Shown here piece by piece: positions 6,844 to 56,397 of a stretch of 64,000 nt of DNA. This stretch comes from Acidimicrobiales bacterium. Lineage in GTDB: Bacteria; Actinomycetota; Acidimicrobiia; Acidimicrobiales; JAJPHD01. Under the pieces are notes generated by a model. That model had not been told where the DNA came from. It did not search any database and was given only the letters and a program-made list of their open reading frames with translations. The stretch's first letter is position 1, and every line of letters begins with the position of its first letter. Position numbers and translations under genes: made by a program. The stretch covers positions 4,401 through 68,400 of the forward strand of contig JBOGGT010000134.1 of the NCBI GenBank assembly GCA_050744225.1. Direction: 5' to 3'.

Positions 6844-7863
6844 TTAGGCGATGGCCGACGCGAAGGAGAGGTTGAAAGGTGTCGCCCCGGATACCGGGAG
6901 ATGTACCGCCGCTCCGTCCAGCGACACCTGGACATTTCCTGGGTCCCCGAGCCGGACCCAAATCGAGCCCCTTGCCTTGAGGGTCTTGGCGACGCCTGCC
7001 TGAAGGACACCTTGGTAGAGGGTGGTGAAACTGGTCGCACTGGGCTTGGCCTCGACCCAGCATGGCCCGGTGACCATCAGTGCCAGGGTCAACTTCGACG
7101 ACGACACCTGGTACGTCGCGCTCCCCGACCCGGTGGACAGCTGGGTAACAGTGGTCTGGGTGGCGGCGGATGGCGGTGTGGAAGGTACCGAGGTCTGCGA
7201 ACCTGGGCTCTTGGCCGCCAACGAGGCATGGGGGGAATGAACCGAGACGGATGGGGACCCGCTCAGGCCAAACCCGACGCCGAACCCGACCCCAAGCCCG
7301 ATCACAGCCAACCCAGCGGCCACCGCCCCCAACGTCTTGTACCGCCGCCCGCTACTTGACCTCGGCCGGGCGAAGCCGGTCGGGGCTAAGGGCCTCGGGA
7401 CCAGGGGACTCGACGGGCCGGTCGGGCCGATCGGGGCGAGGCGGGGCGGGCTTGTAGCCCCGCCGGACAACGAACCCGCGGGCGGGGGCGGCGCCGAAAC
7501 CGGACCAATCCACACGATGCCAGTGTCGGCTAGCGGTAACCGCGACGCCAGCACCGCTGGTCTTGGGGCCGGAACCTGGCGACCCGCCACGAGGCCCGAC
7601 TCAGCGCCCCTCCCGAACAAGTGTGCCCCTTCGGCCGGGTCCTGCGATTCCGGGTCCTGCGATTCCGGGTCCTGCGATTCGAGGGCTTCGACCGGCGGCA
7701 CCACACCGTCCTTGCTGCGCTCCGCCATGCTCGCCAGCACCGCCATCGTCGCCCCGTGACTGTTCACGGACCCTCCCACCCGGCGCCAGGGCCGGCGCAC
7801 CAGGAGCGCTGGCACGCCGAAGACCACCACCACCAAGGCGACGATGATAAAAAAGCTCGCCAT
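6844..7863 (-). CDS. membrane protein with C-terminal DUF4115 (RodZ C-terminal-like) domain
   Basis: Two TM segments and a Pro-rich linker with ESQDP x3. The C-terminus (TLALMVTGPCWVEAKP...IWVRLGDPGNVQVSLDG) resembles the RodZ C-terminal domain. No N-terminal HTH. Confidence 0.6.
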   Translation of the reverse strand: MASFFIIVALVVVVFGVPALLVRRPWRRVGGSVNSHGATMAVLASMAERSKDGVVPPVEALESQDPESQDPESQDPAEGAHLFGRGAESGLVAGRQVPAPRPAVLASRLPLADTGIVWIGPVSAPPPPAGSLSGGATSPPRLAPIGPTGPSSPLVPRPLAPTGFARPRSSSGRRYKTLGAVAAGLAVIGLGVGFGVGFGLSGSPSVSVHSPHASLAAKSPGSQTSVPSTPPSAATQTTVTQLSTGSGSATYQVSSSKLTLALMVTGPCWVEAKPSATSFTTLYQGVLQAGVAKTLKARGSIWVRLGDPGNVQVSLDGAAVHLPVSGATPFNLSFASAIA

Positions 7864-7991
7864 CCTTCGCTAAGCCTCTCTTCTGCTCCTCACTTCTGAG
7901 CTGTACCTACCCATTCAAGCGAACTTTGGACCTCTTTTGTCGTCGCCCAACAGACCCTGGGCCCCAACAGACCCTGGGCCCCGACAGGCTC

Positions 7992-13229: not shown

Positions 13230-14219
13230 ATGACGACAGACACCCCTGGCCGATTGTCGGTGGCACCCCTGGCAGAATGGAGGGGTGACAGTTACCACGG
13301 GCGCGCAGATCGACGACCAGACTCAGGGAAAGGCCGGCTCGGAGCCAGACGAGGCTTACGAAGGGGATGTGCCGTTCGCCCTCCGGGTGGTACCCGCCGG
13401 GCTGGTGAGCTAGTGGCCCCCGCCGCCAGCCTCCCCGAACCGACGCCCCTGGCTGCCAGCCTGCCCGAAGCGATGCCGCCCGGCGAAGCGATGCCGCCCG
13501 GCGAAGCGATGCCGCCCGGCGAAGCGATGCCGCCCGGCGAAGGCGCACCCTCCGAGGAAGGGCCGCCCAAGCTGGGCCACGACGCCCTGTTCGCCGCACA
13601 GGCCGAGACGAACCAGAGCCCCCGGCTCCGCTACGGGGTCCCCGCCAGGGTGCTGTTCGGGCTGTTGGACCTGGCCTACGGCCGGCGCCGCACGCTGTCC
13701 AAGTTCAAGGTGCTGGAGCTGGTGGCGAGGGTCCCCTACCAGTCCTGGGAGCAGGTGGCCTACATCGCCATGACCCACATGAGCGGGCGAACCGACCTCG
13801 CCCGGCGGATCCACCACCGGGTGCTGGAGTCGCGGGCGCAGCAGGACAACGAGGCGTGGCACCTGCTCGTGCTGGAAGAGCTGACCGCCCAGGCGGAGGT
13901 CCGGGAGGACTGGCTCCGGTTCGACGTGTTCCCCCAGATGCTGGCCTTCGCCTACTACCAGCTGTCGTTCCTGCTCTACGTGATCCGTCCCGGCTGGAGC
14001 TACAAGCTCAACGCGGACTTCGAGGACCACGCCGAGCACGAGTACATGGCCTTTGTGGCCGAGCACCCCGAGTGGGAGGTCGAGCCCTTCGAGTCGTCCT
14101 TCGGGGACGACTACGGCAGGTTTGGGTCCCTGGCCGACCTGTTCCGCCAGATCGGCCACGACGAGCGGGTCCACAAGCAAGAAAGCCTTACCCGGCGAAC
14201 CGAAGCCCGCTTCCGGTGA
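13230..14219 (+). CDS. alternative oxidase / PTOX-family di-iron carboxylate protein
   Basis: The four iron-ligand motifs appear in order: LELVARVP, DNEAWHLL (ExxH), FEDHAEHEY, GHDERVH (ExxH). The start is uncertain: the N-terminus contains four in-frame GEAMPP repeats, each with an ATG. Confidence 0.75.
   Translation: MTTDTPGRLSVAPLAEWRGDSYHGRADRRPDSGKGRLGARRGLRRGCAVRPPGGTRRAGELVAPAASLPEPTPLAASLPEAMPPGEAMPPGEAMPPGEAMPPGEGAPSEEGPPKLGHDALFAAQAETNQSPRLRYGVPARVLFGLLDLAYGRRRTLSKFKVLELVARVPYQSWEQVAYIAMTHMSGRTDLARRIHHRVLESRAQQDNEAWHLLVLEELTAQAEVREDWLRFDVFPQMLAFAYYQLSFLLYVIRPGWSYKLNADFEDHAEHEYMAFVAEHPEWEVEPFESSFGDDYGRFGSLADLFRQIGHDERVHKQESLTRRTEARFR
13467..13538 (+). repeat. 18-bp x4 tandem repeat (GAAGCGATGCCGCCCGGC)
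   Basis: Direct reading; encodes EAMPPG x4 at the 5' end of the AOX-family ORF. Confidence 0.9.
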
Positions 14220-25492: not shown

Positions 25493-26737
25493 TCACCCAG
25501 ATCCGACGAGGTCCGCGGGGGTCAGCTGCTCGTTGAGCAGACGGGCGAAGCGCGCCGGCGAGCCGCCCACCCAGGCCCGGCACAGCCGGAGTCCCTCCAC
25601 GTAGCAGGTGATGTAGGCCCGCCAGGTCGGGTCGCACAGGAACTCGACCGCTTTGGCGGCCCGCGCCCGGGGAACCAGGGTCCAGCTCGCCAGCTCGTCC
25701 ACCACCACCTCGGGGTCGGCTCCGTCGGAGTGCAGGCGGAAGGCCGCGTTGGCCCGCGCCGCCCCGAGCGTCTCGCCGGCCTCGGCCACCGCCGCCACCA
25801 CCTCGGGGTCGTAGGCGATCCCGAGCGGGCGAAGGTGCTCCGCAATCAGCACCTCGGGTCGCCGGCCCATCACCACCTCCAGGCCCAGGTCGGCCAGGCC
25901 CTCCGCCATCAGGCACTGAGGGGTGCCGACAAGGAACACCGCTTCCTCGAACTGGCCACCCCGGCGCACCAGCCCGACCTCCTTGCGGCAGTGCTCGGTG
26001 TGGTGGCCCGGATAGGCCTCGTGCGCCACCAGGTGCGCCAGGGCGCTGGATAGGACCGGCAGGTCCACGTTCACGGCCACACGGCTGGACAGGTTCCCCA
26101 GGTAGTAGTTGAACCCCGCCCAGGGTCGGTCGCACACCAGCTCGAAGCTGACCCGTTCGCCCTCGGGTAGGCCGAAGATAGCCAGCGTCCGGGCGCGCAG
26201 ATCCTCCGCCAAGGAGGCGATGGCAGACTCCAGCCGGTCGGGCGGCACCGCCAGGGACTCGCGCCAGGCGACGTAGCGAGCCGCCACGGGGCCACTGCCC
26301 GGCACCACTGCGTCCAGGCGGGCGTGCGCCTCGGCGAAGGCGTCTTCGGGGACCCGGTTGGGGCGCACGCCGTAGCAAGCCTCCACCTCGTCGGCGTAGC
26401 TGAGCCGGGTACCGGCGAGGGATGCGGCGGTGGTGAGCAGGCCCACGAGCTGTGAGTGAAGCCAGGCGCGGCGCTGGGGGCTCTCGGGGTGGGTGGGGGT
26501 GCTGGAGGTTTCTACAGAACCTTCGAGCGATCCGACCGAGTCGAGGGGCTCCCCCGCCTCCAGGCGCCCCAGCAGCCCCCGCGCCTCCGCGGCCAACCGC
26601 TCCGGCGATACCGGCGGCTCCGCCAGGACGCGCCGCGCCAGCGGCGCCGGACCGTAGTAGGCGTCCACCAGCCCGTCGATGTGCCGGCCCAGCCGCAGGC
26701 CCAGCTCGACGTAGCCGCCTACCAGCCCCTCATTCAA
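25493..26737 (-). CDS. DUF885 family metallopeptidase-like protein
   Basis: HEAYPGHHTEH motif at the DUF885-typical position. The start overlaps the upstream stop by 8 nt. Confidence 0.7.
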   Translation of the reverse strand: MNEGLVGGYVELGLRLGRHIDGLVDAYYGPAPLARRVLAEPPVSPERLAAEARGLLGRLEAGEPLDSVGSLEGSVETSSTPTHPESPQRRAWLHSQLVGLLTTAASLAGTRLSYADEVEACYGVRPNRVPEDAFAEAHARLDAVVPGSGPVAARYVAWRESLAVPPDRLESAIASLAEDLRARTLAIFGLPEGERVSFELVCDRPWAGFNYYLGNLSSRVAVNVDLPVLSSALAHLVAHEAYPGHHTEHCRKEVGLVRRGGQFEEAVFLVGTPQCLMAEGLADLGLEVVMGRRPEVLIAEHLRPLGIAYDPEVVAAVAEAGETLGAARANAAFRLHSDGADPEVVVDELASWTLVPRARAAKAVEFLCDPTWRAYITCYVEGLRLCRAWVGGSPARFARLLNEQLTPADLVGSG

Positions 26738-27443
26738 GGGTGCTCCGTAAAAATGCCACCGTGCGCCCCCAGGCCAGAGCGGACGCCTCAGCCGAGTGCT
26801 GGGCCGGGCGAGCGTCGTTAAAGAAGCCGTGGTGAGTGTCGGGATAAATGAAGACCTCCGCCTGCTTGCCCAGGCCGGTCAGGGCCCGTTCTAGCTCGCG
26901 CGCCTTTTCTGGCCCGGCAAAGTCGTCCTCGGCGGCGTAATGGCCCTGGACCGCGGCGGTCATCGCCGAATAGTCCGGGGCAGCATTCGGCCAGGGAATC
27001 AGACCGTAGTAGGGGACAACCGCGGCCACCCGGTCCGGGCGCTGGCAGCCGAGCACCAGCGCCAGGCCCCCGCCCATGCAATATCCCACAACCCCTACCT
27101 TCGGCCCCGCCGAGGGCCGGGCCACCCCGTCCTTCGGCCCCGCCGAGCGCCGGGCCACCTCGTCTACCGCCCCGCTCATGTCCTTTCCCGCCTGGTCCAG
27201 GCGCATGCCCATCATCGCCTTTTGCGCCTCGTCCGGCTCGGCCGCGGTCAGCCCCCGGTACAGGTCGGGTGCCAGGGCGACAAAGCCTTCCGCTGCAAAG
27301 CGGTCGCACACATCTGCTATGTGGGGGACCAGGCCCCACCACTCCTGGATAACCACCACGCCGGGACCGTCGCCCGAGGCCGGGGTAGCCAAATAGCCCT
27401 GGTCGGTCCCGCCATTGCTGGCGAATGTGATCATCTCTCCCAT
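26730..27443 (-). CDS. dienelactone hydrolase family protein
   Basis: ATG at 27443 follows GGGGAGG. GVVVIQEWWGL...FVALAPDLY...GYCMGG (nucleophile elbow)...DTHHGF. Contains an 11-aa (33-bp) tandem duplication at 27098-27163. Confidence 0.85.
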   Translation of the reverse strand: MGEMITFASNGGTDQGYLATPASGDGPGVVVIQEWWGLVPHIADVCDRFAAEGFVALAPDLYRGLTAAEPDEAQKAMMGMRLDQAGKDMSGAVDEVARRSAGPKDGVARPSAGPKVGVVGYCMGGGLALVLGCQRPDRVAAVVPYYGLIPWPNAAPDYSAMTAAVQGHYAAEDDFAGPEKARELERALTGLGKQAEVFIYPDTHHGFFNDARPAQHSAEASALAWGRTVAFLRSTLE

Positions 27444-27472
27444 TCGAGCCTCCCCTTTCTCAGTAGCTTTAA

Positions 27473-27946
27473 TCAATAGAGGCCCCCGAGTTTGCGGTGA
27501 TCCCAGGAGACCATCTTTTCCACCTCTATGCGCACCGCTACCCGTTTGGGCGCCGAGCCAATCATGGCCTCTCGCGCCGGACCCACCATCGGGCCGGCCG
27601 AGCCCGGCCCGGCATAGCGGTCCAGCAGGCGCTCCGCCAGTGCGGCGACCGTCTCGGTGTCCTCCACTATCACCCCCCGGCCAACCAGCTCGACGCCACG
27701 CAGGGTGGAGTAGCTGTCCCCGTCCTCCACCAGCGCGGTGAGGCGCGGGTCCCGGCGCAGGTTGACCGCCTTTTGCGCCCGAGCATAGGTCCAAAAAGCC
27801 GGCGCCCCCTCCAGCCAGGCGTACCACACCGCCACCAGGTGCGGCCGCCCGCCGGCCCCAATGGTGGCCACGGTCATCGTGCGAGCGCCGGCGAGGTACT
27901 CCTGCGCCTCCTCAGGGCTCATCGACACCTGGTTGCGCCTGCTCAT
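27473..27946 (-). CDS. PPOX-class (pyridoxamine 5'-phosphate oxidase fold) probable F420-dependent enzyme
   Basis: ARTMTVATIGAGGRPHLVAVWYAW...AVNLRRDPRLTALVEDG...LRGVELVGR. Confidence 0.8.
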   Translation of the reverse strand: MSRRNQVSMSPEEAQEYLAGARTMTVATIGAGGRPHLVAVWYAWLEGAPAFWTYARAQKAVNLRRDPRLTALVEDGDSYSTLRGVELVGRGVIVEDTETVAALAERLLDRYAGPGSAGPMVGPAREAMIGSAPKRVAVRIEVEKMVSWDHRKLGGLY

Positions 27947-28040
27947 GGCGCCACCGACGCGCTCATGCCCCCACCGACGCGCTCATGCCCCCACCGAACT
28001 GCTCATCGCCCCACCGAACTGCTCATGACCCCACCGACCC
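27941..28040 (-). repeat. 20-bp x5 tandem repeat carrying ATGA junctions (mini-ORF relay)
   Basis: The unit (minus strand) is about GCGTCGGTGGGGGCATGAGC. It supplies the upstream gene's stop, four 7-codon ORFs (MSSSVGR, MSSSVGA, MSASVGA, MSASVAP) and the PPOX start, all linked by ATGA overlaps. Confidence 0.9.
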
Positions 28041-28889
28041 CAGCGGCCCCAGCAGTTCGGCCACCACCGGGCAGTCCGCCCGTCCCAGCGCCTCGGCCAG
28101 CGGGACCACCCCCCCCGGCCCGGCAACCTTCCCCCACAGGCCCCCAATCCGTTCCTCTATCAGCTCCCAGCTCCGATCCCAGGGTTCGCCCGGGTCGTCG
28201 TCGAGCCTGAGGGCCAGGGCCTGCCAGAGCCGGCCTGGGAGCACCCGACCAGCCCCGGCAACCAGCACCACCGGTACCTCCGCCGAGCACGCGACCGCCG
28301 CAGCGGCCCACGACCCCGCAGCCGCCACCACCCCTGAGTCGCCGAGAGCGAGCGCCTCCACCAGGACCACGTCGGCCGCGGCCACAGCCTGGGCCAGGCC
28401 GGAGGCCGGCACCTCGATCACCTCGGACCCGGCGCTGTGCAGCCGCCTCACCAAACCATCAGCCTCACATTCAGGGTCATAGCTCATCACCGCCAGGTCG
28501 CCCCTGCGCAGGACCGCGGACCCAGCCAGCTCGGGCCACCCGATCAGCACCACCGCGGCCGACTCTCCCAGCTCGTCGGCGAGCAGTCGAGCAGTCGGAT
28601 CACGGTCCAGCTCGTCCACCACCGCCCAGCACTCGGCCGCCGGGTCCACCGAAGCCAGGACCCGCGACGCCAGCCACCACATCGGGCCCACCTGGGGATG
28701 GCGGCCCACCAGCCTCTTGCAGGCGGTGACCATCGCGGCGGGATCGCCCGCCAGGCCCGCCAGAGCGGCGGCAGCCTCGCTCACCAGCGAGGAGGGGGGC
28801 GCACCGCCAGCCCTGGCCACGTAGCGCAGACGCTCGATGGGGTGCACCGCTGCGAGCCTAACCGGCCGATCTTGGCACCCTGAAGACAT
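28023..28889 (-). CDS. hypothetical protein (conserved-looking, alpha/beta)
   Basis: 288-aa ORF with coding-like composition. The first ~8 codons lie in a 20-bp-stem hairpin, so the real start may be a downstream GTG. Confidence 0.5.
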   Translation of the reverse strand: MSSGCQDRPVRLAAVHPIERLRYVARAGGAPPSSLVSEAAAALAGLAGDPAAMVTACKRLVGRHPQVGPMWWLASRVLASVDPAAECWAVVDELDRDPTARLLADELGESAAVVLIGWPELAGSAVLRRGDLAVMSYDPECEADGLVRRLHSAGSEVIEVPASGLAQAVAAADVVLVEALALGDSGVVAAAGSWAAAAVACSAEVPVVLVAGAGRVLPGRLWQALALRLDDDPGEPWDRSWELIEERIGGLWGKVAGPGGVVPLAEALGRADCPVVAELLGPLGSVGS

Positions 28890-28918
28890 CCTGGATGACT
28901 TCAGGGTGCCAAGATCGG
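28866..28918 (-). terminator. perfect 20-bp-stem hairpin downstream of the fumarase gene
   Basis: CCGATCTTGGCACCCTGAAG-13 nt-CTTCAGGGTGCCAAGATCGG, about 80 nt after the stop at 28997. Confidence 0.55.
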
Positions 28919-28996: not shown

Positions 28997-30379
28997 TTAA
29001 TATAAAATCCCGCCCCGGGTCATAGCCAGGGTGTCCAGCGCCCGGTCCACCTCTGACTCAGAGAGCAGGCCCCTCTCCAGCACTACCGCCCTCAAGGTCT
29101 TTCCGGAAGTTGCCGCGGCCTTGACCACCTCGGCGGCGGCCTCGTAGCCGATCCACGGGTTGAGGGCGGTGGCCAGCGCCGGCGAGGAAGCCGCGTAGGC
29201 CGCGCAGCGCTCCACCTCGGCCTCGATCCCCGCCACGCAGCGGTCGGCCAGCGCCCGCGCCGCCCCGGTGAGCAGACGGATCGACTCGCACAGGTTGGCA
29301 GCGATGACCGGCGCCATCAGGTTCAGCTCGAGGGTGCCCGCCGCCCCCCCGAAAGCGACCGCCGCGTCGTTGCCGATCACCTGGGCCACCACCTGGCAGA
29401 CCGCCTCGGGCACGACCGGGTTCACCTTGCCGGGCATGATCGACGACCCCGGTTGCAGCTCAGGCAGGCGGATCTCGCCCAGCCCGCAGCGCGGCCCGCT
29501 GCCCATCAGGCGCAGGTCGTTGGCCACCTTATAGAGAGCAATTGAGCACCCGCGCAGCCCAGCCGACGCTTCCACCAGCGCATCGCGCGCCCCCGCGGTG
29601 GCGAAGTGATCCCGCGACTCGGTCAGCGCCAAGCCGAGGCGCTCGGACAGATCGGCGATCACCGCGCGGGCAAAGCCCGGCGGCGCGTTCAGCCCGGTGC
29701 CGACCGCCGTGCCCCCCAAGGGGAGCTCGCACAGGCGCCCCATCAGGCCCTCCAGCAGCTCAACGCAGCGTCGGATCTGTGCGGTGTAACCCCCGAACTC
29801 CTGGCCGAGGGTCACCGGGGTGGCGTCCATCAGGTGCGTCCTGCCCGCCTTGACCACCCCGGCAAAGGCCGCCGCCCGCTCCCCCAGGGCCTCGGCGAGG
29901 TGCTCCAGCGCCGGGACCAGCTCCTTGGCGATCCCCTGGGCGGCGGCGAGGTGGATCGCGCTCGGGAACACATCGTTGGAGGACTGCGAGGCGTTGGGTT
30001 CGTTGTTCGGGCGGATCTCGGTTCCCAGGCGCTCGCCGGCCAGGTTGGCCAGCACCTCGTTCATGTTCATGTTGGTGGAGGTCCCCGACCCGGTCTGGAA
30101 CACGTCGACCGGGAACTGCCCGGCGTGGCGCCCCTCGGCGACCTCCCCGGCCGCAGCGACCAGGGCAGCGGCCACTCCTGGGTCGATGACACCGAGAGAG
30201 GCGTTGGCGCGGGCGGCGGCGGCTTTGATCTGGGCGAGCGCGCAGATCAGCTCGGGGTCCATACCTCGGCCCGAGATGGACAGGTTCTCCACCGCGCGCT
30301 GGGTCTGTGCCCCCCAGCGAGCGGTGGCAGGGACGCCCACCTCCCCCATCGAGTCGTGTTCGATCCGGAGCGCTTCCAT
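28997..30379 (-). CDS. fumC: class II fumarate hydratase (fumarase/aspartase superfamily)
   Basis: [27 protein letters not shown], and the signature [12 protein letters not shown]. The QTGSGT form favours fumarase over aspartase, but VVPE after the signature is aspartase-like, so subfamily certainty is moderate. Confidence 0.8.
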
Positions 30380-37875: not shown

Positions 37876-37906
37876 CCCCCGAGAATAAAGGGGCCGCCGT
37901 CCCGCC

Positions 37907-37990
37907 GGCACTCAGCCCGGAACTCAGCCCGTCACTCAGCCCGGAACTCAGCCCGGAACTCAGCCCGTCACTCAGCCCGGCACTCAGGCC
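37907..37990. repeat. 12-bp x7 intergenic tandem repeat (GGAACTCAGCCC-like)
   Basis: Direct reading. It lies immediately upstream of the guaA start and includes the stop of the Uma2 remnant. Confidence 0.9.
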
Positions 37991-44031: not shown

Positions 44032-44268
44032 CTATTTGCGGAAGGCGTCCCTGACCTTTCCGCCAGCGTCCCTGACCTTTCCGCCAGCGTCCTTGACCTT
44101 TCCGCCAGCGTCCTTGACCTTCTCGACGGCCTGCTTGAGCTCCCCTCCGGTACGGTCGAGCGTCCCCTTGTCCTCGAGTGACTTATCGCCTGCGGCTCTG
44201 CCAACACCCTCCTTAGCGCGACCCTTCAAGACCTGTGCCTTGGCCTTGGCTTTTTCCGCGATACCCAT
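44032..44268 (-). CDS. CsbD family stress-response protein with C-terminal KV(K/R)DAGG x4 repeat
   Basis: GRAKEGVGRAAGDKSLEDKGTLDRTGGELKQAVEKVKDA. A 21-bp x4 tandem repeat lies at 44045-44128. Confidence 0.8.
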   Translation of the reverse strand: MGIAEKAKAKAQVLKGRAKEGVGRAAGDKSLEDKGTLDRTGGELKQAVEKVKDAGGKVKDAGGKVRDAGGKVRDAFRK

Positions 44269-46689: not shown

Positions 46690-47905
46690 GATCCCGGGCT
46701 CGAACAGGGTGCGACGCCGGCACCGGAACGGCCGGGGCTGGGGCGTCCAGGGACGGGACGGCCGGGGCCGGGGCCGGGACGGCTGCGGACAGGAGGCAAA
46801 GCAGTCGGGCGACGGCTACCAGGTCGGCGCGATTGTGTTCGATGATCGGGACGAGCGGACCGATGTTCCGGCTCCGCTCGTACTCTCGATAGAAGTGGGG
46901 AACAGCCTCACCCGGAAGGTCATCGAGGTCCCGCGGGGTCCCCAAGACGTGAGCCTCGACCGTACCCAGCCGGCAGTCCTCCAAGCCCGTACCGGCGGCG
47001 GGAGCCGAATCCGCCGAGATCAGCGACGATGGTCGATACAGGCGCCTGACGGGCGGCAACAGGTCCAGGTGGTAGCGAACGGGTAGCTTGCCCAGTCCAA
47101 AGTACGCGCTGCGTTGCGCAAGCCATGGCGCGTCGGCGCTGCGGCCGTTGTAGGTCACCAAGCCTTCGCACTCCCTCAGGACCCCCATTGCCAAGTGGAG
47201 CGCCGCGGGCTCCTCGCTCCCGGCCCGGGCCAAGTACTGGTGAAGCTCCAGGCAGGTGCCGACCAGACGGGCAAAGCCGAACAGGATCATGGACGACCCC
47301 CATAGTCCGAGGGTCTCCAGGTCCACGATGACCAAGCCACCGGGCGCTATCAGGCCAGCCAGGGCCACGCCAGGGTGGTGGCCGAGAGGCCCCAGGCAAT
47401 GGCGGATGTGGTCGTGGAGCACCCCCAGGTCCCGCCGTTCCCAACGTTCGACCAGCCACGACGCTGAGCCTCCGAAGCGATGATGGTCCACCAGGTCGGT
47501 GATCCGACCCACCCCCCCGGCCCTCAGCGCCTCAGAAGTCACCGGACCGACGCCGCAAACCAGCCGAAGCTCGCCGAGCACCGCATCCTCCGCCGCTGCC
47601 GGCGACGCCAGGCTAAACCCAAAGGGCTGCACGAGCTGCACCAGGTGCAAGCACGGCCCGTAGGGGGTCTGGGCCTCCGATACCTCATATAGGTCATCCA
47701 ACGCGACCCCGGCAAAGCGACGGCAGAGCCTGGCCGCCAGCCGCCACCGGTTGAAGCCCTGGCCTCGGTGGTCCTCGCCTCGGTGGTCCTCGCCTCGGTG
47801 GTCCTGGCCTCCGTGGTCCTGGCCTCGGTGGTCCTCGCCTCGGTGGTCCTGGCCTCGGTGGTCCTCGCCCCATTGGGCGGCTGCAGGTCGCTCAGCCGCG
47901 TTCAT
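46673..47905 (-). CDS. YprB/MrfB-like RNase-H-fold (DEDD-type) exonuclease
   Basis: VIVDLETLGL (DxE), LVTYNGRSADAPWL, IEHNRADL (HxxxD). Its ATG at 47905 overlaps the upstream TGA (ATGA). N-terminal DHRG(E/Q) x7 repeat (15 bp x7, 47761-47865). Confidence 0.75.
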   Translation of the reverse strand: MNAAERPAAAQWGEDHRGQDHRGEDHRGQDHGGQDHRGEDHRGEDHRGQGFNRWRLAARLCRRFAGVALDDLYEVSEAQTPYGPCLHLVQLVQPFGFSLASPAAAEDAVLGELRLVCGVGPVTSEALRAGGVGRITDLVDHHRFGGSASWLVERWERRDLGVLHDHIRHCLGPLGHHPGVALAGLIAPGGLVIVDLETLGLWGSSMILFGFARLVGTCLELHQYLARAGSEEPAALHLAMGVLRECEGLVTYNGRSADAPWLAQRSAYFGLGKLPVRYHLDLLPPVRRLYRPSSLISADSAPAAGTGLEDCRLGTVEAHVLGTPRDLDDLPGEAVPHFYREYERSRNIGPLVPIIEHNRADLVAVARLLCLLSAAVPAPAPAVPSLDAPAPAVPVPASHPVRARDHVVNR

Positions 47906-48831: not shown

Positions 48832-49999
48832 CGGGCTCCTTGTCCTCAAGGTCCACCGGGCCAATCAGGTCACCGCGCTCGAAGCTGAAGCGGCGCCCTG
48901 GCACGCAGGATGCAATCGCCGGGCACCACGGGCAGAGAGGGTTGGGGTTCGCATGGGCCACACCGCCGTGGGCCAACCGCGCCAGCGAGGCCAGCCCCTG
49001 AGCAATGCGCGCACTCGCCTGCGCCATAAGCTCCGCTGTGACCACGTCCAGCTCCAGCTCGCCGTCGCGCAGGTAGTAGGTCCCGACCTGGAAAGGGGGC
49101 GCCCGATGCCTGAGCGTCTCCAGAACTGCATACCAGCCCGCGTCGGCGCGATCCTCCTGGCGGCGCCGGCCGCTTTTCACATCGACGAGGGTCGCCCCAG
49201 CCACGCCCGCCCCAGCCAAGCCGGCCCCAGCCAAGCCGGCCCCAGCCACGCCCGCCCCAGCCACGAGTGGTGTGGCTCGACCCAGCACCAGGTCAACCCG
49301 TCCGGTCAGCACCACATGCCCTCCGGAAAGCTCCGCCCGCAAGGGCTCCTGCAACCGGACCAGCGCGCTGGAAGGCAAGACCGGCCATGCCTCAAGCGCA
49401 CCCCGGCAGGACTCCACGATGGACGCCGCTTCCGCCTGCTGTTCTGAGGACAGGCCAGCCCAATCGAAACCCAAGCGCTCCTGGCCAGCCGCGGTGGCGG
49501 CCGCGAGCGCGTAGGTCACGAGGTCCCACCCGGGCGTGCCTACGGTCACAGGTCCAAGCGGACTGGCGGTAGTCACCGACCTGAGCGGGTGGCCGACGGC
49601 GACCAAGCCGAAGAGCAGGTCGGCCAAGCGACCCGCCACCAGTGCGGAAGTCGGCGGGTCCGAAGCGTCCAGGCAGGCAACGAGGTGGCGCTCACACGTC
49701 AGGACCTGGCGCAACCGGGTCTTGGTGACCCGCAGAGGCGACCCTCCATCGGGCCATCGGGGCCATGCCCCCACTGCCTCCTCCAGCTCCGCTCGGATGC
49801 GAGCCGCCGCAAACTCGTCAATCGTCGGCCGGATCTGGCCCACCCCTCTCAGCGATTCAAGCAAGGTCTGTGATTTCGGGGATCCCACAGCTCCAAGTAT
49901 GGCCTGAAGCTGTGACAACCCGGTCCCGACAAGGGGGTGGGGAAGGTAAAGCGCGTATAACACTGCCAACCTTCCCCACCCCCTAGCCTCGCAAGTCAT
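48821..49999 (-). CDS. Cas4/AddB-like PD-(D/E)xK nuclease with Fe-S-type cysteine cluster
   Basis: TGRVDLVLG...TLVDVKSG (D...DxK), C-terminal CPWCPAIASC (CX2CX5C) and an upstream Cys (LTCERHLVAC). The start is uncertain: the ATG at 49999 abuts the divergent MOSC ATG, and TTG 49918 or GTG 49888 are alternatives. Confidence 0.6.
   Translation of the reverse strand: MTCEARGWGRLAVLYALYLPHPLVGTGLSQLQAILGAVGSPKSQTLLESLRGVGQIRPTIDEFAAARIRAELEEAVGAWPRWPDGGSPLRVTKTRLRQVLTCERHLVACLDASDPPTSALVAGRLADLLFGLVAVGHPLRSVTTASPLGPVTVGTPGWDLVTYALAAATAAGQERLGFDWAGLSSEQQAEAASIVESCRGALEAWPVLPSSALVRLQEPLRAELSGGHVVLTGRVDLVLGRATPLVAGAGVAGAGLAGAGLAGAGVAGATLVDVKSGRRRQEDRADAGWYAVLETLRHRAPPFQVGTYYLRDGELELDVVTAELMAQASARIAQGLASLARLAHGGVAHANPNPLCPWCPAIASCVPGRRFSFERGDLIGPVDLEDKEPDAR
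49933..49983. promoter_or_regulatory. perfect 15-bp inverted repeat at the head of the nuclease-helicase operon (operator or 5' hairpin candidate)
   Basis: GGGGGTGGGGAAGGT-21 nt (aaagcgcgTATAACactgcca)-ACCTTCCCCACCCCC, 14 nt from the back-to-back start codons at 49997-50000. Confidence 0.4.
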
Positions 50000-50660
50000 G
50001 GCAGCCCCGAGGGTGGTCTCGGTCAACGTCGGGGGTCCGGCCGAGTTGAACTGGCATGGCAGGGTAGTCCGCTCCAGTATCTGGAAGCACCCGGTGGCCG
50101 GCCCAGTACAAGCGACTGGCATCAACCTGGCCGGCGACAGCCAGGCCGACCGCAAGGTGCACGGCGGCCCGGACAAGGCAATCTATGCGTACGCGACCGA
50201 GGACTACGCCTGGTGGCAGGAACAGCTCGGGAAGGAGCTGGAGCTGGCTAGTTTTGGCGAGAACCTGACCACCGGCGGGATTGACCTCACCGAAGCACTG
50301 ATCGGCGAGCGCTGGAGGGTCGGCACCTGCGTGCTCGAGGTGGCGCAGCACCGAACGCCTTGTTACAAGCTGGGCATCCGCCTCGGCGACGACACCATCC
50401 CCGACCGGTTCCTCCAGGCGGGGCGCCCCGGGGCCTACCTGCGCATCGCCGAGGAAGGCAAGCTCAGCGCGGGCGAGGACATCGAGGTGATCTACCGCCC
50501 GAAGAACAGTCTCAGCGTGGGGGCAGTGGCGACCATCATCGCCTCAGCGCCCGAGCGCGCAGCGGAGCTGCTGGAGATCCCTGCGCTGGCAGCTTCGCGC
50601 CAGGCCTGGGCGCGAAGCACGCTCGCCCGCATGGGACTCACCCTCGAAGGCGCCAGTTGA
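49998..50660 (+). CDS. MOSC domain-containing protein (YiiM-like)
   Basis: VVSVNVGGP...IWKHPV...GDSQADRKVHGGPDKAIYAY...GENLTTGGID...RTPCYKLG. Confidence 0.85.
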   Translation: MAAPRVVSVNVGGPAELNWHGRVVRSSIWKHPVAGPVQATGINLAGDSQADRKVHGGPDKAIYAYATEDYAWWQEQLGKELELASFGENLTTGGIDLTEALIGERWRVGTCVLEVAQHRTPCYKLGIRLGDDTIPDRFLQAGRPGAYLRIAEEGKLSAGEDIEVIYRPKNSLSVGAVATIIASAPERAAELLEIPALAASRQAWARSTLARMGLTLEGAS

Positions 50661-50667
50661 CGGGACC

Positions 50668-50800
50668 GGGCGCCGGGCTCAGGCGGGCGCCGGGCTCAGG
50701 CAGGCGCCGGACTCAGGCCGGGCGCCGGACTCAGGCCGGGCGCCGGACTCAGGCGGGCGCCGGACTCAGGCCGGGCGCCGGACTCAGGCAGGCGCCGAGG
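50668..50800. repeat. 17-18-bp x~7.5 tandem repeat (GGGCGCCGGACTCAGGCC-like)
   Basis: Direct reading. It starts 8 nt after the MOSC stop, and its distal end overlaps the 3' end of a small minus-strand ORF. Confidence 0.9.
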
Positions 50801-55173: not shown

Positions 55174-56397
55174 TCAGTGCTGCAGGTCGAGCTTGAGGCC
55201 GGGGTCGGCTCCCGTGTCGAGCGGGCTGGGGCCGTCCGAGCACAGCCTCCACCAACCGGCGGCCGCCACCATGGCGGCGTTGTCGGTGCACATCGCCCGG
55301 CTGGGCAGGAACGACTGCAGCCCATCGGCCTCGCAAGCCGCCCTGGTTGCCGAGCGCAGCTCTGTGTTGGCTGCCACCCCGCCCGCCAGGCAGATCGCCC
55401 TGGCATTGCGCTCCGCAGCAGCCCGGCGCGCCTTTGTGACCAGCACCTCGACAACCGCCCGCTGGAAGCTGGCCGCCAGGTCCGGCGTGGACGCCTCGGG
55501 GTGCGCCCTCACGTAGTGGATCACCGAGGTCTTGAGCCCGCTGAACGAGAAATCCCACCCACCATCCATCATCGCGCGCGGGAAGCGGATCGCGGTTGGG
55601 TCGCCTTCGGTCGCCAGACGGTCAATGGCCGGGCCACCGGGGTACTCCAGGCCCAAGAACCTCGCCACCTTGTCAAAAGCCTCGCCCGCCGCATCGTCGA
55701 GCGTCTGGCCCAGCAGGCGGTAGCGGCCCCGTCCCTCCATCTCGATGAGCATGGTGTGGCCTCCCGAAACCAGGACCACAATCGCCGGGTACTCCACTGT
55801 CGGGTCTTCCAGGGACGCCGCGTACAGGTGGGCCTCCAGGTGGTTCACCCCCACGAAGGGCACGCCCCACACCAGGGCCATCGCCTTGGCCGCACTCACC
55901 CCGACCAGAAGGGAGCCGATCAGCCCAGGCCCGACGGTGGCAGCCACCGCTGCAAGGGCGGCCGGACACGACCCGGCGGACTCCTCGGCGCGGGGGGCGT
56001 CAGAGCTGGGGTTCGGGGAGCTGGGGTTCGGGGAGCTGGGGTTCGGGAGGCTGGGACTCGGGGGGCGGGGGTTCGGGGGGCGGGGGTCCGGGGGGCGGGG
56101 GTTCGGGGGGCGGGGGTCGAGGCCGGCCTCCAACAGGGCCTTGGCCACCACCGGGGTCAAAAGCTCAACGTGCGCCCGCCCCGCCAACTCGGGCACCACC
56201 CCCCCGAAGCGCGCGTGCAAGTCGATCTGGCTGGAAACGACGGACGAGAGCACATCCCGACCCGCCACCACCACTGCCGCCGCCGTCTCGTCGCAGGAGG
56301 TCTCGATGCCCAGCACAGTGGCGGGTCCGCTCAGCACGGTCCGCTCCAGCACGGTCCGCTCCAGCACGGTCCGCTCCAGCCTGGGCTCATCCAGCAT
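55174..56397 (-). CDS. tsaD: tRNA N6-adenosine threonylcarbamoyltransferase
   Basis: VLGIETSCDETAAAVV...GVNHLEAHL...VLVSGGHT...GEAFDKVAR...GGVAAN. A Pro-rich repeat insertion of about 45 aa (15 bp x8, 56005-56124) and an N-terminal LERTV repeat make the start uncertain. Confidence 0.9.
   Translation of the reverse strand: MLDEPRLERTVLERTVLERTVLSGPATVLGIETSCDETAAAVVVAGRDVLSSVVSSQIDLHARFGGVVPELAGRAHVELLTPVVAKALLEAGLDPRPPNPRPPDPRPPNPRPPSPSLPNPSSPNPSSPNPSSDAPRAEESAGSCPAALAAVAATVGPGLIGSLLVGVSAAKAMALVWGVPFVGVNHLEAHLYAASLEDPTVEYPAIVVLVSGGHTMLIEMEGRGRYRLLGQTLDDAAGEAFDKVARFLGLEYPGGPAIDRLATEGDPTAIRFPRAMMDGGWDFSFSGLKTSVIHYVRAHPEASTPDLAASFQRAVVEVLVTKARRAAAERNARAICLAGGVAANTELRSATRAACEADGLQSFLPSRAMCTDNAAMVAAAGWWRLCSDGPSPLDTGADPGLKLDLQH

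Follow-up and report, generated by a model that had tools for sequence, protein, structure and literature searches.

Simple-sequence contingency loci, as in Neisseria and Haemophilus, are phase-variable repeats. MIRUs are intergenic tandem repeats located within operons; their units are 40-100 bp long and contain small ORFs that overlap with the genes on either side (PMC3184786). MIRUs at start codons are described as having their ORF coupled at -4, so that the downstream gene is minimally affected (PMC12548453, citing Supply et al. 1997). The senX3-regX3 MIRU has strain-specific copy numbers, and its region has promoter activity (PMC4213456). Gene pairs overlapping at -4 in an NTGA motif are translationally coupled by termination-reinitiation (review PMC12548453). 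Short uORFs deliver ribosomes to a downstream gene in the bicistronic design, and mycobacterial uORFs are coupled to annotated genes (cited in PMC12548453).

The DNA analysed here is a 64-kb stretch, the window, from an Acidimicrobiales bacterium. It contains a short tandem array between two co-oriented genes of a conserved cluster. The features are, by coordinate:

26730..27443, minus strand: dienelactone hydrolase family gene (Pfam DLH, E=7e-41; also called as a gene in GCA_973744045.1, L001)
27473..27946, minus strand: PNPOx_N (PPOX-class) protein gene, 157 aa (PF01243, E=1.6e-15; start by homology)
27941..28040, minus strand: 20-bp x 5 tandem array (TRF and base-by-base unit listing)
27943..27966, minus strand: mini-ORF 4, MSASVAP and stop; its TGA overlaps the ATG of the PPOX gene (base-by-base reading)
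27963..27986, minus strand: mini-ORF 3, MSASVGA and stop (base-by-base reading)
27983..28006, minus strand: mini-ORF 2, MSSSVGA and stop (base-by-base reading)
28003..28026, minus strand: mini-ORF 1, MSSSVGR and stop; its ATG overlaps the TGA of the upstream gene (base-by-base reading)
28023..28847, minus strand: eIF-2B-like protein gene, 274 aa (ORF and homology; its TGA, 28025-28023, lies in the first ATGA of the array)
28997..30379, minus strand: class II fumarase gene (fumC), first gene of the conserved cluster (Pfam Lyase_1 / FumaraseC_C)

The synteny fumC - eIF2B-like - PPOX - dienelactone hydrolase was found in many related loci. TRF reports a 20-bp period with 5.0 copies, 86% matches and a score of 123 at 27941-28040. 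The array consists of head-to-tail copies of one 20-bp unit with high identity, which reads ATGAGC(AGT/GCG)TCGGTGG(GGCG/GGGC/CGCC) on the minus strand. ATGA occurs at 28026-28023, 28006-28003, 27986-27983, 27966-27963 and 27946-27943, spaced by exactly 20 nt. The upstream gene ends with ...GPLGSVGS-TGA, and four ORFs of 7 codons follow, the TGA of each lying inside the next ATGA. At all five consecutive ATGA junctions, the downstream start overlaps the TGA of a co-oriented upstream ORF, which is the -4 NTGA arrangement. An earlier note on this DNA had described the array, its ATGA every 20 nt and the four mini-ORFs linking two genes; TRF and base-by-base reading confirmed the array and the four mini-ORF peptides. 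Its statement that GGTGGGG precedes every ATGA holds for four of the five, as the PPOX ATG is preceded by GGTGGCG in the window. The unit tails of the window are GGGGCG, GGGGGC (twice) and GGCGCC, and the allele reads ...ggtggggtcATGAgcagt tcggtggggcgATGAgcagt ... cgccATGAgcaggcgcaaccagg.

Translation in any of the three minus-strand frames meets a stop within two units, and a longer product spanning the array is therefore impossible. The mini-ORFs, at 7 codons, are without plausible protein function. The 20-nt period had been read as an exact fit to termination-reinitiation. The arithmetic holds, but it is automatic: the period is 2 mod 3 and the unit contains ATGA (20+1=21), so a 7-codon relay follows. 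The phase of the relay is no independent evidence.

The MIRU-VNTR arrays of the Mycobacterium tuberculosis complex are the closest analogue. Like them, the array lies between two co-oriented operon genes of an actinobacterial high-GC host and varies in copy number between strains; each unit has a small ORF that runs in the direction of the flanking genes and overlaps their stop and start codons at -4. The unit is smaller, 20 bp with a 7-codon ORF versus 40-100 bp. MIRUs form a dispersed, possibly mobile family of ~40-50 loci, whereas the array derives from a local junction. Its host belongs to the Acidimicrobiales, not to Mycobacterium, and its unit is explained by local gene ends. The array is thus not a member of the MIRU family. 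With -4 NTGA gene pairs it shares the canonical motif at five junctions, an SD-like G-rich stretch before it and an ancestral pair arranged identically. Unlike these pairs, the array chains five junctions via 7-codon ORFs, and coupling is putative here. Bicistronic designs and uORFs have in common with the array a short non-functional ORF that ends at the start codon of a real gene; here, four or five such ORFs form a serial chain that is fed by a full-length upstream gene.

Contingency loci resemble the array in having a slippage-prone repeat beside a start codon with copy numbers that differ among strains. In contrast to these loci, a copy change in the array cannot switch either ORF on or off and at most modulates the efficiency of coupling: every unit has its own stop and start, so no copy number switches either ORF off. 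A classical phase-variable locus was rejected on the stops in all frames within two units and on the two flanking ORFs, which are intact at five and at six copies. The array is of a broadly known repeat type and is not a demonstrated regulatory device.

Judged by homology, both gene ends flanking the array are native ends. The eIF-2B-like protein has 1034 homologues (E<=0.001), nearly all in Acidimicrobiales and with a typical length of ~267 aa. PF01008 (IF-2B) is recorded for a few of these homologues; the window's own protein has no Pfam match. Its C-terminus ELLGPLGSVGS aligns with the ends of homologues, and the family ends a few residues past ELL(R/T/G)P, as here. At the other end of the gene, translation probably starts at GTG 28847 (274 aa): the homologues begin MHPIERLRY, as does the database protein P0001, which has 274 aa. 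The ATG at 28889 proposed by the ORF finder (288 aa) was rejected on this N-terminus of the homologues.

The intergenic region between fumC and the eIF2B-like gene has a near-perfect inverted repeat at 28866-28918, with 26-nt arms that are 96% complementary and separated by 1 nt. It is situated a short way upstream of GTG 28847, the likely start, and covers ATG 28889. The repeat is identical in two other strains and no T-run follows. An operator palindrome and an RNA hairpin are both conceivable.

A tblastn search with the PPOX protein against 80 related loci yielded ~45 alignments that begin at query residue 1-3. The relatives start with ATG-(AGC/TCC)-CGN-CGN-GAC-CAG-ATC (MSRRDQI...), and the window start MSRRNQVSM matches the conserved MSRRDQIRM of these ~45 relatives. 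Alignment from residue 1-3 identifies ATG 27946 as the conserved start. A start at the in-frame ATG 27922 (MSPEEAQ...) would turn the last unit into an untranslated leader; it was rejected on the same alignments, in which this ATG encodes a conserved internal Met. The downstream dienelactone hydrolase gene has a strong Shine-Dalgarno sequence, GGGGAGG, with the ATG 6 nt further on. In this window, groEL too is preceded by GGTGG as an SD-like motif.

The seven closest retrieved relatives (62-78% aa identity) have a single NTGA (-4) overlap at the junction of the two genes in 7/7 cases: ATGA in L089, L092 and L098, and GTGA in L088, L090, L096 and L097. The junction of L089 reads ...ggaggcacATGAgcaggcgtaaccagg. 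L054 also has ATGA, L004 has a 10-nt spacer, and more distant relatives have spacers of mostly 9-30 nt and in a few cases up to ~120 nt. A tandem array was found at this junction in none of the relatives examined; the array is restricted to one species-level Acidimicrobiales lineage. The earlier note would have given up a coupling device if relatives had a single unit and no conserved ATGA phase. A single unit is indeed what the relatives have, but the NTGA phase is conserved among them.

Compared with this single junction, the array has four additional copies, ~80 nt of extra sequence. In the unit, the PPOX 5' end ATGAGCAG is directly followed by the 3' end of the upstream gene TCGGTGGGG (TCGGTGGGGnn). 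The mini-peptides are chimeric as well, with MS from PPOX and SVG from the upstream C-terminus in its native frame. The unit joins both native gene ends, which argues for a duplication of the local junction and not for an inserted element. At the level of sequence comparison, the array is thereby shown to be a local duplication, ~80 extra nt, at an ancestral NTGA junction.

Strain variation was accessible through contigs that encode an identical PPOX protein and the 274-aa upstream protein, which were found in three MAG assemblies of NCBI and in two Logan runs. GCA_973744045.1 (L001) has five ATGA with the unit tails GGGGCG three times and then GGCGCC, and GCA_050734335.1 (L085) has six ATGA, equal to five mini-ORFs, all with GGGGCG; these exact copy numbers rest on short-read MAG assemblies and may be mis-estimated. 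The L002 allele is of the window type. The three full alleles form an alignment of 1,520 columns. Its 1,400 flanking columns contain 1 variable site; the array part has 6 variable columns and a 20-nt indel and is ~80-fold more variable per site than the flanks. The comparison of copy number among related strains, as the earlier note had proposed, revealed five versus six ATGA between near-identical strains with conserved flanks, the pattern of a VNTR. The array persists in at least three alleles with its ATGA phase intact.

Four further contigs terminate within the array or right at it. Such ends are typical, because repeats trouble short-read assemblers, and this breakage is the one observation in favour of an assembly artefact. 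Against it, the window, GCA_973744045.1 and GCA_050734335.1 each contain a full array from an independent assembly, the partial arrays at the four contig ends agree with the full arrays, and an array of 100-120 nt can be spanned by single reads. An artefact is hardly credible. The array is real and polymorphic, which answers the concern raised in this respect at the outset.

The locus is best explained as a lineage-specific, strain-variable and tolerated VNTR or minisatellite, which arose when slippage or unequal recombination duplicated the junction (probability about 0.75). A slipped duplication of the ribosome binding site and start region had been one of two suggestions for this DNA, and it is well supported by the single NTGA of the relatives, the chimeric unit and the copy number that varies in near-identical strains. 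Replication slippage or unequal recombination would have copied 20 bp across the ancestral -4 NTGA overlap. The copied segment carries the last codons and the stop of the upstream gene, an SD-like GGTGGGG and, from PPOX, the start with its first 8 nt. Afterwards, replication slippage or unequal exchange would change the copy number of the array. Each unit carries a stop, an SD-like motif and a start, so both proteins are unchanged at every copy number: the upstream ORF ends at the first TGA in every case, and the PPOX ORF starts at the last ATG, in a near-native context. A 20-bp duplication inside either gene would be destructive; spanning the NTGA junction, it would be harmless and can hence survive there.

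Translation through the array may follow two routes. Ribosomes finishing the upstream gene may reinitiate serially through the 7-codon mini-ORFs or, alternatively, ribosomes may load directly at the last SD-like site. In either case PPOX translation would persist, perhaps somewhat reduced per extra unit. Since coupling depends on spacing and reinitiation seldom reaches full efficiency (PMC12548453), extra units could modestly lower the PPOX output. The array appears to be tolerated and near-neutral. Its persistence in at least three alleles with intact ATGA phase is also compatible with weak selection.

A selected translational rheostat or contingency device would use the same slippage to alter the number of termination-reinitiation steps, tuning PPOX against the upstream gene in a heritable and reversible manner. 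Five versus six ATGA among strains with nearly identical flanks, the ATGA and SD-like motif kept in every unit, and an ancestral pair that is -4 coupled by its arrangement, a spacing that supports coupling (PMC12548453), agree with such a device. However, any unit-wise duplication will automatically be hypervariable and keep its ATGA, and copy-number variation is expected of any tandem repeat in a repeat-rich genome, in which dozens of comparable arrays exist without such logic. Only a single species-level lineage has the array, the observed range of 5-6 copies is narrow, and the neighbourhood of PPOX, fumarase and hydrolase is housekeeping-like and not a typical contingency locus. Tunable coupling or attenuation is also not accompanied by an RNA structure, terminator, promoter or known RNA family. 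A permissive Rfam scan of 27400-28600 found no family at E<=1, the fold of a 155-nt RNA was no better than those of shuffles (MFE z=-0.69), and no promoter-like or terminator-like site was found in or near the array. On the Rfam, folding and terminator results, a leader-peptide attenuator or riboswitch-type element was rejected. Taken together, a selected rheostat is unlikely. Its fuller version, in which sub-populations differ in the PPOX-to-upstream protein ratio and selection keeps the 2 mod 3 period, is quite doubtful.

The five direct 20-bp repeats could be iteron-like protein sites, the GGGG runs that recur on the sense strand could form a G-rich coding-strand structure affecting transcription or replication, and an internal promoter has a parallel in the promoter activity of the senX3-regX3 MIRU region (PMC4213456). 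Such a DNA- or transcription-level element is very improbable, given that relatives lack the array, that the G-runs are spaced by 16 nt over most of it, more than a canonical quadruplex allows, and that no sigma-70-like promoter was found at the array. The array has zero TA dinucleotides, which leaves no possibility for an actinobacterial TANNNT -10 in it. A small mobile or dispersed MIRU-like element, inserted at the PPOX start codon and then tandemly amplified, would yield the architecture reported for MIRUs, in which small ORFs share a -4 overlap with the genes beside them (PMC12548453, PMC3184786). Yet both halves of the unit are homologous to native gene ends of relatives, the 20-bp unit is short in comparison to the 40-100 bp of MIRUs, and the 64-kb window has no other copy of the unit with up to 3 mismatches. 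Two scans of JGI metagenomes were without a related array: the exact PPOX-start pattern had 0 matches, and the degenerate one-unit pattern had 3 matches, all of them unrelated single junctions of rimI-type genes. Insertion of a mobile element is accordingly highly improbable, and the duplicated junction, as a tolerated VNTR, is the preferred reading.

In two metagenome contigs (L093, 416-441, and L095, 8742-8767), a gene end ...ILMSLSVAP-TGA overlaps the next ATG, with the DNA ATGAGCYTGTCGGTGGCGSCATGAGC. This match to one array unit is due to chance: it is a single junction in unrelated metagenome contigs.

The array alone reveals no new regulatory mechanism. It is a natural example of a self-repairing duplication: a tandem copy across an NTGA overlap spares both genes, and a repeat whose period is not a multiple of three can thus survive between tightly packed genes of a repeat-prone genome. 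The locus suggests that local slippage can create a MIRU-like architecture, an intergenic VNTR with -4-coupled mini-ORFs, de novo and with no mobile element involved. Alleles of 1, 5 and 6 units form a natural series with which reinitiation efficiency through serial -4 junctions could be measured. In this lineage, the array is a potential strain-typing marker and a cause of contig breaks.

Tandem repeats are frequent in the window, with 95 TRF rows and ~20 strong arrays. Most have a period of 9, 12, 15, 18 or 21 bp, many with perfect copies, and by a rough count over the window the period of arrays within ORFs is mostly a multiple of three. Many arrays of high identity have periods of 12-21 bp, again mostly multiples of three, and 3-7.5 copies, several being 100% identical; examples are located at 13466-13542, 47758-47869, 56008-56117, 37905-37987, 44045-44145 and 7635-7680. 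The related loci L011 and L090 have no array scoring above 58. These observations suggest a lineage with very active short-repeat expansion.

Periods that are not multiples of three are not unique to the 20-bp array in the window; two arrays with a 17-bp period are examples. One has 7.5 copies and 93% matches in TRF (50667-50797). It begins 6 nt past the stop of a MOSC-like gene (49998-50660, plus strand) and reaches into a small convergent ORF of the minus strand at its 3' end. The other has 2.5 copies (7946-7987) and is located just past a gene end. The lineage is prone to short tandem duplications, which are filtered by frame through selection.

Repeats are also present in the neighbouring genes and their families. 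The dienelactone hydrolase gene downstream of PPOX contains an in-frame repeat of 33 bp x 2.6 (27091-27175), which encodes ARRSAGPKDGV / ARPSAGPKVGV. In the eIF2B-like family, the window protein has no insert, and the homologues P0003-P0009 and P0017 have, all at one site, inserts rich in Gly, Ala and Pro that vary greatly in length. This site is at alignment columns ~200-245, between S186 and G187 of the 288-aa protein (DNA ~28330), and looks like a second hotspot of repeat expansion in the same gene family.
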